Below are positions 1 through 4,271 of a stretch of 4,271 nucleotides of DNA, piece after piece. The notes beneath the pieces were generated by a model, which searched no databases, was not told the origin of the DNA, and saw only the letters and a list, made by a program, of their open reading frames with translations. Made by a program: the position numbers and the translations under genes. Source of the DNA: a virus (lineage: Duplodnaviria > Heunggongvirae > Uroviricota > Caudoviricetes); IMG/VR virus record IMGVR_UViG_2648501149_000003; one strand, 5' to 3'. The stretch's first letter is position 1. Each line of letters begins with the position of its first letter.

Positions 1-336
1 GCTGATTTGAGTCGCTACAGTGGCACGGTGGTTAACCGTCCGACGTTTTTTGCTTTTGCAAAAGGCGCGGGTGTGATGGGGGAAGCAGGACCTGAAGCCA
101 TTCTGCCACTGCGTCGTGGTGCTGACGGTAAGCTGGGGGTTGTGGCGGATATTGGTGGTTCAGGTATGGCGATGTTTGCCCCGCAGTACAACATCGAGAT
201 CAATAACGATGGCACGAACGGGCAGATAGGTCCGGCTGCCCTGAAGGTGGTTTATGACCTTGGGAAAAAAGCGGCAGCGGACTTTATGCAACAGCAGGCC
301 CGTGATGGTGGTCGGTTAAGTGGAGCATATCGGTAA
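1..336 (+). CDS. H: Tail tape-measure protein H, C-terminal ~111 codons (5'-truncated by window edge)
   Basis: Frame 1 is open from base 1 to TAA at 334-336; the ORF-track TTG at 7 is not the real start. The translation (VVNRPTFFAFAKGAGVMGEAGPEAILPLRRGADGKLGVVADIGG...QQQARDGGRLSGAYR) is recognisable as the C-terminus of lambda-type gpH, and it lies directly upstream of M as in lambda. Stop overlaps the M start (TAATG). Confidence 0.82.
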   Translation, partial: ADLSRYSGTVVNRPTFFAFAKGAGVMGEAGPEAILPLRRGADGKLGVVADIGGSGMAMFAPQYNIEINNDGTNGQIGPAALKVVYDLGKKAAADFMQQQARDGGRLSGAYR

Positions 337-665
337 TGGAGACGTTTCACTGGAAAGTGCGCCCGGATATGAATGTGGTATCAGAGCCGAAAGTGGTGAC
401 AGTGAAGCTGGGCGATGGTTATGAACAGCGTCGTGCGGCGGGACTGAATAACCAGTTGTCGACTTACAGCGTGACGATACGTGTTCGTAAATGTGAACAC
501 CCATCTTTAAAAGCCTTTCTGGAACGGCACGGTGGCGTCCGCGCATTTCAGTGGACGCCACCTTATGACTGGAAGCCGATCAGGGTGGTTTGTCGTAAAT
601 GGTCGGCAAGCGTGGGGGCGCTGTGGGTAACCATAACGGCAGATTTTGAACAGGTCGTGGCATAG
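336..665 (+). CDS. M: Minor tail protein M (tail tip assembly), 109 aa
   Basis: ATG at 336 overlaps the H stop (TAATG), with GGAG at 321-324 upstream. The 109-aa product (METFHWKVRPDMNVV...TPPYDWKPIRVVCRKWSASV...ADFEQVVA) matches the gpM family in length and sequence and sits between H and L. Confidence 0.88.
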   Translation: METFHWKVRPDMNVVSEPKVVTVKLGDGYEQRRAAGLNNQLSTYSVTIRVRKCEHPSLKAFLERHGGVRAFQWTPPYDWKPIRVVCRKWSASVGALWVTITADFEQVVA

Positions 666-674: not shown

Positions 675-1373
675 ATGCAGGATATTCCACAGGAAACACA
701 TCATGAGACGACACGCCTCACTCAGTTAGCCCAGGTGGTGCTCTGGGAAATCGATCTGACAGAGGTCGGTGGTGAACGTTATTTTTTCTGTAATGAGCAG
801 AACGAAAAAGGTGAGCCGGTTACCTGGCAGGGGCGGCAGTATCAGGCATACCCCATTCAGGGGACGGGATTTGAACTGAACGGCAAGGGCAGTGCTGCCC
901 GTCCGACACTGACGGTTTCTAACCTGCACGGAATGGTCACCGGGATGGCGGAAGACCTGCAGAGTCTGGTCGGCGGAACGGTGGTCAGGCGTAAGGTTTA
1001 CGCCCGTTTTCTGGATGCGGTGAACTTCGTCAACGGAAACAGCGACGCCGATCCGGAGCAGGAGGTGATCAGCCGCTGGCGCATCGAGCAGTGCAGCGAA
1101 CTGAGCGCGGTCAGTGCCTCCTTTGTACTGTCCACACCGACGGAAACGGACGGCGCTGTTTTTCCGGGGCGCATCATGCTGGCCAACACCTGCACCTGGA
1201 CCTATCGCGGTGATGAGTGCGGTTATAACGGTCCGGCTGTCGCGGATGAATATGACCAGCCGACGTCCGATATCACGAAAGATAAATGCAGCAAATGCCT
1301 GAGTGGCTGTAAGTTTCGCAATAACGTCGGCAACTTTGGCGGCTTCCTTTCCATTAACAAACTTTCGCAGTAA
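675..1373 (+). CDS. L: Minor tail protein L (tail tip protein), 232 aa, with C-terminal Cys cluster
   Basis: ATG at 675 is preceded by AGGAGG at 664-669 (5-nt spacer). The 232-aa product (MQDIPQETHHETTRLTQLAQVVLWEIDLTEVGGERYFFCNEQNEKGEPVTWQGRQYQ...) matches lambda gpL in length and sequence, including C-terminal cysteines C173, C182, C205, C208 and C212. Confidence 0.92.
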   Translation: MQDIPQETHHETTRLTQLAQVVLWEIDLTEVGGERYFFCNEQNEKGEPVTWQGRQYQAYPIQGTGFELNGKGSAARPTLTVSNLHGMVTGMAEDLQSLVGGTVVRRKVYARFLDAVNFVNGNSDADPEQEVISRWRIEQCSELSAVSASFVLSTPTETDGAVFPGRIMLANTCTWTYRGDECGYNGPAVADEYDQPTSDITKDKCSKCLSGCKFRNNVGNFGGFLSINKLSQ

Positions 1374-1378
1374 ATCCC

Positions 1379-2122
1379 ATGACACAGACAGAATCAGCGA
1401 TTCTGGCGCACGCCCGGCGATGTGCGCCAGCGGAGTCGTGTGGCTTCGTGGTGAGAACGCCGGAAGGGGAAAGATATTTTCCCTGCGTGAATATCTCCGG
1501 TGAGCCGGAGGCGTATTTCCGGATGTCGCCGGATGACTGGCTGCAGGCAACACTGCACGGTCAGATTGTGGCGCTGGTCCACAGTCACCCCGGTGGTCTG
1601 CCCTGTCTGAGTGAAGCCGACCGGCGGCTGCAGGTGCAGAGTGATTTGCCGTGGTGGCTGGTCTGCCGGGGGGCGATTCACAAGTTCCGCTGTGTGCCGC
1701 ATCTCACCGGGCGGCGCTTTGAGCACGGGGTGACGGACTGTTACACACTGTTCCGGGATGCTTACCATCTGGCGGGAATTGAGATGCCTGATTTTTATCG
1801 TGAGGATGACTGGTGGCGTCACGGTCAGAATCTCTATCTGGATAATCTGGAGGCAACGGGGCTGTATCAGGTTCCGTTGTCAGCGGCGCAGCCGGGCGAT
1901 GTGCTGCTGTGCTGTTTTGGTTCATCGGTGCCGAATCATGCCGCCATTTACTGTGGTGACGGCGAGCTGCTGCACCATATTCCTGAACAACTGAGCAAAC
2001 GAGAGAGGTATACCGACAAATGGCAGCGACGCACACACTCCCTCTGGCGTCACCGGGCATGGCACGCATCTGCCTTTACGGGGATTTGCAACGATTTGGC
2101 CGCCGCATCGACCTTCGTGTGA
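1379..2122 (+). CDS. K: Tail tip assembly protein K: N-terminal MPN/JAMM (JAB) domain plus C-terminal NlpC/P60 (C40) peptidase-like domain, 247 aa. An alternative internal start at 1523 would give a 199-aa form.
   Basis: ORF 1379-2122. JAMM motif H68-x-H70-x7-S78-x2-D81 (HSHPGGLPCLSEAD, nt 1580-1621) with upstream Glu in AESCG (E19, nt 1433-1435). NlpC/P60-like Cys in VTDCYTLF (C121) and His in PNHAAIY (H187). The internal ATG at 1523 has GGAGG at 1507-1511, whereas ATG 1379 has no obvious SD and lies 5 nt after the L stop. Confidence 0.85.
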   Translation: MTQTESAILAHARRCAPAESCGFVVRTPEGERYFPCVNISGEPEAYFRMSPDDWLQATLHGQIVALVHSHPGGLPCLSEADRRLQVQSDLPWWLVCRGAIHKFRCVPHLTGRRFEHGVTDCYTLFRDAYHLAGIEMPDFYREDDWWRHGQNLYLDNLEATGLYQVPLSAAQPGDVLLCCFGSSVPNHAAIYCGDGELLHHIPEQLSKRERYTDKWQRRTHSLWRHRAWHASAFTGICNDLAAASTFV

Positions 2123-2667
2123 AAACGGGGGCCGAAGCCATCCGGGCGCTGGCCACACAGATCCCGGCGTTTCGTCAGAAACTGAACAACGGCTGGTATC
2201 AGGTACGCATTGCCGGGCGTGATGCAGGCGAAAACGAATTATCAGCCCGTCTTAATGAGCCGCTGGAAAATGGTGCCGTGATCCACATCGTGCCGCGTCT
2301 GGCGGGAGCCAAAAGTAGCGGTGTATTTCAGGCGGTGCTGGGGGCGGCGTTGATTGCGACGGCAAGCTGGAACCCGGTGGGCTGGCTGGGTGCCGCGGCT
2401 GTATCGGGCATGTATGCGGCAGGGGCCAGTATGATCCTGGGCGGTGTGGCGCAGATGCTGGCACCGAAAGCCAGGACCCCAACAACAACCAGCACAGATA
2501 ACGGCAAACAGAACACCTATTTCTCATCACTGGATAACATGGTTGCCCAGGGCAATGTTCTGCCTGTTCTGTACGGTGAAATGCGTGTGGGGTCACGGGT
2601 AATTTCGCAGGAAATCAGCACGGCAGACGAAGGGGACGGTGGTCAAATCGTGGTGATTGGTCGCTGA
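2020..2667 (+). CDS. I: Tail tip assembly protein I (ubiquitin-like N-terminal domain; Gly/Ala-rich hydrophobic middle), 215 aa
   Basis: ATG at 2020 with AGAGG at 2004-2008 upstream. It overlaps the 3' end of K by 103 nt in a different frame, as in lambda. The product begins MAATHTLPLASPGMARICLYGDLQRFGRRIDLRVKTGAEAIRALA and ends KQNTYFSSLDNMVAQGNVLPVLYGEMRVGSRVISQEISTADEGDGGQIVVIGR, as in lambda gpI. Confidence 0.88.
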   Translation: MAATHTLPLASPGMARICLYGDLQRFGRRIDLRVKTGAEAIRALATQIPAFRQKLNNGWYQVRIAGRDAGENELSARLNEPLENGAVIHIVPRLAGAKSSGVFQAVLGAALIATASWNPVGWLGAAAVSGMYAAGASMILGGVAQMLAPKARTPTTTSTDNGKQNTYFSSLDNMVAQGNVLPVLYGEMRVGSRVISQEISTADEGDGGQIVVIGR

Positions 2668-2727: not shown

Positions 2728-4271
2728 ATGGGTAAAGGCAGCAGTAAGGGGCATACCCCGCGCGAAGCGAAGGACAACCTGAAGTCCACGCAGTTGCTGA
2801 GTGTGATTGATGCCATCAGCGAAGGGCCGGTTGAAGGTCCGGTGGATGGCTTAAAAAGCGTGCTGCTGAACAGTACGCCGGTGCTGGACAGTGAGGGGAA
2901 TACCAACATCTCCGGTGTCACGGTGGTGTTCCGGGCAGGTGAGCAGGAGCAGACTCCGCCGGAGGGGTTTGAATCCTCCGGCTCCGAGACGGTGCTGGGT
3001 ACGGAAGTGAAATATGACACGCCGATCACCCGCACCATCACGTCGGCAAACATCGACCGTCTGCGCTTTACCTTCGGTGTACAGGCACTGGTGGAAACCA
3101 CCTCAAAGGGAGACAGGAATCCGTCGGAAGTTCGCCTGCTGGTTCAGATACAGCGTAACGGTGGCTGGGTGACGGAAAAAGACATCACCATTAAGGGCAA
3201 AACCACCTCGCAGTATCTGGCCTCGGTGGTGGTGGATAACCTGCCGCCGCGCCCGTTCAATATCCGGATGCGCAGGATGACGCCGGACAGCACCACAGAC
3301 CAGCTGCAGAACAAAACGCTCTGGTCGTCATACACCGAAATCATCGATGTGAAACAGTGCTACCCGAACACGGCACTGGTCGGCGTGCAGGTGGACTCGG
3401 AGCAGTTCGGCAGCCAGCAGGTGAGCCGTAATTATCATCTGCGCGGACGCATTCTGCAGGTGCCGTCGAACTATAACCCGCAGACGCGACAATACAGCGG
3501 TATCTGGGACGGAACGTTTAAACCAGCATACAGCAACAACATGGCCTGGTGTCTGTGGGATATGCTGACCCACCCGCGCTACGGCATGGGGAAACGTCTT
3601 GGTGCAGCGGATGTGGACAAATGGGCGCTGTATGTCATCGGCCAGAACTGCGACCAGTCAGTGCCGGACGGCTCTGGCGGCACGGAGCCGCGCATCACCT
3701 GTAATGCGTACCTGACCACACAGCGCAAGGCGTGGGATGTGCTCAGTGATTTCTGCTCGGCGATGCGCTGTATGCCGGTATGGAACGGGCAGACGCTGAC
3801 GTTCGTGCAGGACCGACCATCAGATAAGGTGTGGACCTATAACCGCAGTAATGTGGTGATGCCGGATGATGGCGCGCCGTTCCGCTACAGCTTCAGCGCC
3901 CTGAAGGACCGCCATAATGCCGTTGAGGTGAACTGGATTGACCCGAACAACGGCTGGGAGACGGCGACAGAGCTTGTGGAGGACACGCAGGCCATTGCCC
4001 GTTATGGTCGTAATGTCACGAAGATGGATGCCTTTGGCTGTACCAGTCGGGGGCAGGCACACCGCGCCGGGCTGTGGCTGATTAAAACAGAACTGCTGGA
4101 AACGCAGACCGTGGATTTCAGCGTCGGCGCAGAAGGGCTTCGCCATGTACCGGGCGATGTTATTGAAATCTGTGATGATGACTATGCCGGTATCAGCACC
4201 GGTGGTCGTGTGCTGGCGGTGAACAGCCAGACCCGGACGCTGACGCTCGACCGTGAAATCACGCTGCCATC
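2728..4271 (+). CDS. J: Host specificity / central tail fibre protein J, N-terminal ~514 codons (3'-truncated by window edge)
   Basis: ATG at 2728 with GGAG at 2716-2719 (8-nt spacer). Frame 1 is open to the window end with no stop. The translation begins MGKGSSKGHTPREAKDNLKSTQLLSVIDAISEGPVEGPVDGLKSVLLNSTPVLD and continues ...NKTLWSSYTEIIDVKQCYPNTALVGVQVDSEQFGSQQVSRNYHLRGRILQVPSNYNPQTRQYSGIWDG..., recognisable as the lambda gpJ N-terminal region. The ORF track omits it only because it has no stop in the window. Confidence 0.92.
   Translation, partial: MGKGSSKGHTPREAKDNLKSTQLLSVIDAISEGPVEGPVDGLKSVLLNSTPVLDSEGNTNISGVTVVFRAGEQEQTPPEGFESSGSETVLGTEVKYDTPITRTITSANIDRLRFTFGVQALVETTSKGDRNPSEVRLLVQIQRNGGWVTEKDITIKGKTTSQYLASVVVDNLPPRPFNIRMRRMTPDSTTDQLQNKTLWSSYTEIIDVKQCYPNTALVGVQVDSEQFGSQQVSRNYHLRGRILQVPSNYNPQTRQYSGIWDGTFKPAYSNNMAWCLWDMLTHPRYGMGKRLGAADVDKWALYVIGQNCDQSVPDGSGGTEPRITCNAYLTTQRKAWDVLSDFCSAMRCMPVWNGQTLTFVQDRPSDKVWTYNRSNVVMPDDGAPFRYSFSALKDRHNAVEVNWIDPNNGWETATELVEDTQAIARYGRNVTKMDAFGCTSRGQAHRAGLWLIKTELLETQTVDFSVGAEGLRHVPGDVIEICDDDYAGISTGGRVLAVNSQTRTLTLDREITLP

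Follow-up and report, generated by a model that had tools for sequence, protein, structure and literature searches.

The stretch between positions 1191 and 1310 encodes, with a probability that we put at roughly 0.93, the metal-binding core of a lambda-type tail tip protein L, in which Cys173, Cys182, Cys205 and Cys212 would hold a [4Fe-4S] cluster that most likely acts as a structural cross-brace for tip assembly. The gpL-type iron-sulfur cluster is already published biology (2013, and later several cryo-EM structures). Since the L copy described here hardly differs from lambda gpL in its metal-binding domain, the finding restates that biology, and its value lies mainly in a correct annotation and in a sharper definition of the site, with C173, C182, C205 and C212 as ligands and C208 outside it.

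The window analyzed, that is, the whole stretch of 4271 bases, carries a lambdoid tail-tip module on the plus strand, as determined from the ORF list and Pfam matches:

1-336, plus strand: 3' end of the tape-measure gene (H), from the ORF list and Pfam
336-665, plus strand: gene M, distal tail protein and partner of L in the tip complex (PF05939 at 135.7 bits; lambda gene order)
675-1373, plus strand: gene L, tail tip protein L (baseplate hub protein 1), 232 aa (ORF list, PF05100, TIGR01600)
[quoted passage not shown]
2020-2667, plus strand: gene I, tail tip assembly protein I (PF06805 on residues 14-97; start as in PGAP)
2728-4271, plus strand: 5' part of gene J, central fibre/hub protein (PF24801, FNIII-A_GpJ; PF13550, Phage-tail_3)

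When the Pfam matches of the neighbouring ORFs were compared, the order H-M-L-K-I-J was the same as in phage lambda and in PGAP prophage annotations, with L lying between M and K-I-J. The module is that of a lambdoid prophage. From end to end, the DNA of the window shares 96.5% identity with phages such as Tritos, mEp460 and cdtI, and the best identity to an E. coli prophage was 97.3%. Of 5426 complete E. coli genomes, 4586 had some match to the window, at a median of 3 places per genome with any match. The window is the entire 4271-bp contig JHSC01000067.1 of the draft assembly GCA_001265795.1, and this contig is probably a fragment left by an assembly break inside a multi-copy lambdoid tail module.

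An Rfam scan of the whole window gave no match at gathering thresholds, and scanning for promoters and terminators yielded no more hits than shuffled sequence did, with nothing relevant in the cysteine-cluster region. An antisense ORF of 275 aa (726-1553, minus strand), which extends over the greater part of L into the beginning of K, matched nothing in Pfam at E up to 0.1 and is most likely a shadow ORF of a GC-rich coding region.

L starts at an ATG with AGGAGG upstream at 665-670 and ends at a TAA stop codon at 1371-1373. At the M-L junction (663-735) the two genes are separated by a 9-nt spacer that contains the end of the AGGAGG site, whereas in lambda the M stop and the L start overlap by one base. 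Against the Pfam family PF05100 (cut-off 25) the protein scored 331.8 bits, with all 206 profile positions covered, and against the NCBIfam equivalog TIGR01600 (cut-off 70.75) it scored 328.4 bits, so that it lies above the curated family thresholds at full length. A phmmer comparison with lambda gpL extended end to end over residues 1-232 (E = 1.1e-147). Lambda gpL has the same length (232 aa), 93% amino-acid identity to L and, in a codon-by-codon comparison, 90.8% nucleotide identity; the lambda gpL entries in the PDB matching L at 93% are 8iyk (chain 8iyk_L), 8iyl, 8k35, 8xcg and 9e7m. The flanking genes are also the same, and all seven cysteines of L sit at identical positions in lambda gpL. 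By every criterion that can be tested on sequence, L qualifies as a true lambda-type gpL.

The two proteins differ by 17 substitutions. All but one of them fall within residues 1-124, and 8 lie in residues 5-20, among them C12T, by which C12 of lambda is lost. The C-terminal domain equals that of lambda gpL except for S185N, and the metal site is untouched by any difference. At position 185 the column is variable: T, H, N, S and A are each frequent there, and N occurs in 33 homologues. In residues 154-232 there were 10 synonymous changes and 1 replacement (S185N) relative to lambda, and in residues 1-153 there were 21 synonymous changes and 16 replacements. L is under purifying selection in comparison with lambda.

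It is conceivable that the site exists in the sequence without being used, in which case the window would belong to a defective prophage remnant and neither a tail tip nor a cluster would be made from it. Many lambdoid E. coli prophages are cryptic, a complete E. coli genome has a median of 3 lambdoid tail modules, and the window forms a contig of its own. However, none of the five complete and two partial ORFs of the window is disrupted, all have the full length of their families, and the excess of synonymous changes in the domain (10 to 1) points to a protein kept under selection. The databases also contain L variants that are frameshifted or fused, but they look different from this L. We consider an idle copy unlikely; this L is probably expressed.

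L has cysteines at residues 39, 140, 173 (NTCTW), 182 (DECGY) and 205, 208 and 212 (KCSKCLSGC). A preliminary description of this DNA had proposed an iron-sulfur site at 1191-1310, a span that runs exactly from the C173 codon through the C212 codon, on account of five cysteines in the last 60 residues; five of the seven do lie there, and the other two fall within the first 172 residues. If 7 cysteines are placed at random in 232 positions, the probability of at least 5 in the last 60 is 0.014, and that of any 5 within 40 residues is 0.043. The clustering by itself is only modestly unusual, and the significance of the cluster comes from conservation and not from clustering statistics.

Conservation was determined in 263 homologues from two database searches, the seven cysteine columns being mapped by phmmer alignments. 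The site was also compared with PA0638 of the Pseudomonas aeruginosa F-type pyocin (PDB 25vf, chain 7), a component of a bacteriocin and not of a phage, which is homologous to L over residues 19-224 (E = 1e-40) and whose cluster ligands align by phmmer with C173, C182, C205 and C212 of L. The domain and its cysteines are as follows:

1134-1370, plus strand: C-terminal iron-binding ([4Fe-4S]) domain of L, residues 154-232, with limits taken from lambda gpL (PMC10721106)
1191-1193, plus strand: Cys173, codon TGC, proposed cluster ligand 1; ligand in lambda, aligned with C165 of PA0638; conserved, Cys in 65/66 homologues below 45% identity and in 137/141 relatives at 60% identity or above
1218-1220, plus strand: Cys182, codon TGC, proposed cluster ligand 2; ligand in lambda, aligned with C178 of PA0638; conserved, Cys in 66/66 homologues below 45% and in 138/141 relatives at 60% or above
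1287-1289, plus strand: Cys205, codon TGC, proposed cluster ligand 3; ligand in lambda, aligned with C201 of PA0638; conserved, Cys in 66/66 homologues below 45% and in 140/141 relatives at 60% or above
1296-1298, plus strand: Cys208, codon TGC, non-ligand, specific to the lambda clade; Arg in PA0638; not conserved in distant homologues, Cys in 1/66 below 45% (usually R, T, S or K) and in 138/141 relatives at 60% or above
1308-1310, plus strand: Cys212, codon TGT, proposed cluster ligand 4; ligand in lambda, aligned with C208 of PA0638; conserved, Cys in 66/66 homologues below 45% and in 138/141 relatives at 60% or above
Cys39, outside the domain: Cys in 14/66 homologues below 45% (mostly His) and in 96/105 relatives at 60% or above that cover the column
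Cys140, outside the domain: Cys in 0/66 homologues below 45% and in 71/132 relatives at 60% or above that cover the column

The few close relatives that depart from Cys in a ligand column resemble frameshifted or fused gene products. Independently, 31 full-length homologues at 33-50% identity were aligned with MAFFT, and only 11 columns were invariant (G53, P77, G100, D114, L152, C173, Y177, C182, D203, C205 and C212), and the four proposed ligands account for 4 of these 11. W175, R178 and R215 were nearly invariant in the homologues. The conserved pattern reads C-x-W-x-Y-R-x3-C, about 20 residues, and D-x-C-x6-C-x2-R. The alignment of gpL homologues, by which the preliminary description had proposed to recognize four invariant cysteines, thus singled out C173, C182, C205 and C212, kept in 65-66 of the 66 distant homologues, and the lack of conservation that it had named as evidence against the site was not seen in these four. 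Its statement that the ligand set is fully present holds in a narrower form, since all four lambda ligands are found at identical positions in L. The motif C205-x2-C208-x3-C212 is likewise there in its residues, but C208 as a ligand did not stand, being Cys in only 1 of 66 distant homologues and a non-ligand in the lambda structure.

The fold of L was predicted with AF2 on the same 31-sequence alignment. The model showed a beta-rich N-terminal domain with pLDDT of about 96 and a C-terminal domain that is mostly coil, almost without regular secondary structure, with block-mean pLDDT of 42-89. The model holds no cofactor, and the low-confidence C-terminal domain was left out of any Cys-Cys geometry. 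A poorly ordered C-terminal domain in the model is as expected for a small domain whose fold would depend on a cofactor. The best Foldseek matches of the model were 8iyk_L, T1 9l9p_J and the hub proteins of Chi, JBD30, RcGTA and T5. The AF2 model and the Foldseek matches together gave the two domains of the family, an N-terminal tail-tube-like hub domain I and a small C-terminal iron-binding domain.

Published structures place the cluster on the same residues. In the lambda cryo-EM map, density modelled as an iron-sulfur cluster is surrounded by Cys173, Cys182, Cys205 and Cys212 (PMC10721106), and lambda gpL and its homologues carry an oxygen-sensitive [4Fe-4S]2+ cluster according to the biochemistry of Tam et al. 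2013 (J Mol Biol 425:2450), as cited in PMC10721106. In the F-pyocin, PA0638 coordinates a [4Fe-4S] cluster through C165, C178, C201 and C208; it differs from L in having Arg at the position of C208 of L and four extra residues, with another Cys among them, inserted behind the first ligand. Cluster density was also seen by cryo-EM in T1 gp36, and the RcGTA hub protein has four conserved cysteines on an Fe-S cluster. T1 gp36 (PDB 9l9p_J) and the Rhodobacter capsulatus GTA hub (6tba) consist, as does L, of a hub domain I with a tail-tube-like fold and a four-Cys iron-binding domain, although they are distant from L (13-23% identity in structural alignments) and the RcGTA hub, unlike L, carries an inserted oligosaccharide-binding domain. 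The baseplate hubs T5 pb3 and DT57C were also recovered by the fold search with L; in these, one large polypeptide does the job of L and J. Some relatives of gpL, LSH1 among them, are without these cysteines altogether, which indicates that the cluster is dispensable for some hubs of the gpL type.

The general claim of the preliminary description, that the gpL family holds an Fe-S cluster through conserved C-terminal cysteines, is therefore backed both by the lambda structure and by the invariance of the residues in distant homologues. Its further proposal that this tail tip likely carries a metal cluster is supported by the 93% identity of L to lambda gpL and by a domain that differs from it at S185N only. 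By analogy with what is published for lambda, N15, RcGTA, T1 and the F-pyocin, the site in L would be occupied by [4Fe-4S] and the cluster would be needed for activity.

Tam et al., in 2013, are said to have found that Cys-to-Ser or Cys-to-Ala changes at the four ligands of lambda gpL abolish tail assembly or biological activity. In the mechanism that we favour, C173, C182, C205 and C212 would hold one [4Fe-4S] cluster per L subunit, and hence three per tail tip. The cluster would most likely be a structural cross-brace tying together the segments CxWxYRxxxC and DxCx6CxxR, so that a small domain poor in regular secondary structure could fold and pack against gpJ on the outside of the gpJ/gpL cone, a packing that would be needed for tail-tip assembly. 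In lambda, gpJ and gpL are described as a trimer forming a trimeric cone, with the iron-binding domain on its outer surface (PMC10721106). On receptor binding the domain would move rigidly with the neighbouring hub domains as the tip opens; in lambda, when LamB is bound and the tip opens, the 4Fe-4S domain, HDII, HDIII and HDII-ins1 rotate together as one rigid body (PMC11101478). The authors of the F-pyocin structure proposed that the cluster is a 'molecular pin' at the PA0638/PA0641 interface, and a similar structural pin may be its role in L. Since the lambda authors state that the function of the cluster 'remains to be characterized' (PMC10721106), it may also have a redox or sensing role.

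C208 is confined to the lambda clade, and in the lambda structure it does not serve as a ligand; in the mechanism above it would be a nearby non-ligand cysteine. It could instead be a functional addition of that clade, either as a spare or exchangeable ligand or as a thiol that protects or reloads a surface-exposed, oxygen-sensitive cluster. Such a role appears improbable, and if true, lambda-type tips would have gained a redox-responsive element missing in other gpL-type hubs. Also improbable is the idea that all five clustered cysteines matter, with C208 as a ligand or an exchangeable fifth one, able for instance to change places with C205 or C212 while the cluster is loaded or oxidized or as the tip opens. 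The position of C208 between two ligands and its retention in 138/141 relatives at 60% identity or above agree with this, but that retention may merely reflect the low divergence of the whole domain. Against it, R, T, S or K replace C208 in nearly all distant homologues, PA0638 has Arg there and still binds its cluster through the other four cysteines, and the lambda structure names only C173, C182, C205 and C212 as surrounding the cluster (PMC10721106). A five-ligand site was rejected on conservation and on the published structures.

A Cys4 site could also bind a single metal ion such as zinc, in the manner of a zinc knuckle, in place of an iron-sulfur cluster. Four-Cys sites in small domains poor in secondary structure often bind zinc, the C-terminal domain is coil-rich in the AF2 model of L, and the two kinds of site cannot be distinguished by sequence alone. 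On the other hand, cryo-EM papers describe cluster density in lambda gpL (PMC10721106), the RcGTA hub, T1 gp36 and F-pyocin PA0638, the biochemistry cited for gpL and its homologues is that of an oxygen-sensitive [4Fe-4S]2+ cluster, and the domain of L differs from that of lambda gpL at one residue only. Zinc in L is thus very improbable, and was rejected on conservation and on the published structures. The cysteines could finally be clustered by chance or form disulfides, for which only the clustering probabilities given above speak; with four positions invariant down to 33% identity while neighbouring cysteines vary, and with tails assembling in the reducing cytoplasm, which counts against disulfides in L, this can practically be dismissed, and disulfides were rejected on conservation and the published structures. 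The reading of C173, C182, C205 and C212 as ligands of a [4Fe-4S] cluster is preferred over each of these.

Several further observations concern homologues of L and the neighbouring genes. About 25 of the 150 representative gpL homologues listed carry an insertion of 150-410 residues near query residue 120, in the loop VNGNSDADPEQ, with the four-Cys domain kept, and in other homologues the L-like part is at the C-terminus of proteins of 1170-2258 aa. These proteins (P0200-P0263, P0192, P0207 and P0230), all from outside the window, may be hubs with inserted or fused domains or may be gene-call fusions.

Gene K is here an ORF of 247 aa with the JAB match starting from residue 3, and PGAP also gives 247 aa in a 97% identical prophage, whereas in the lambda reference (NC_001416) K is annotated with 199 aa and a start at 14276. 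An upstream ATG of lambda at 14133 opens a frame with nearly the same first 45 K residues (R26S only), which then goes out of frame. The regions compared were 1379-2122 of the window (G1513) and 14133-14276 of lambda NC_001416 (L001 1434-1577). Lambda is without one G in K (GAGGCGTAT in the window, GAGGC-TAT in lambda), and the lambda K frame is lost after about 45 residues because of this missing G. There are two explanations: a 1-nt error or deletion in K of the lambda reference sequence, or a K protein in laboratory lambda that is truncated at its N-terminus and has an incomplete JAB domain.

Two starts were called for gene I, one at 2119 (2119-2667, 182 aa; L003) and one at the ATG at 2020 (215 aa), which is that of PGAP and lambda. 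In the long form the Lambda_tail_I match spans residues 14-97, so that a start at 2119 would remove part of this domain. The long form overlaps K by 103 nt, and at 215 aa it compares with 223 aa in lambda. In the 60-nt spacer between I and J, inside the late operon and just past the I stop, there is a perfect hairpin at 2684-2709 (GAAACCGCC-TGCG-GGCGGTTTT) followed by GTCGTTT. The hairpin was absent from the list given by the terminator scan; nevertheless it looks like a terminator, and the 71-nt fold had a minimum free energy of -22.5 kcal/mol (z = -2.4).
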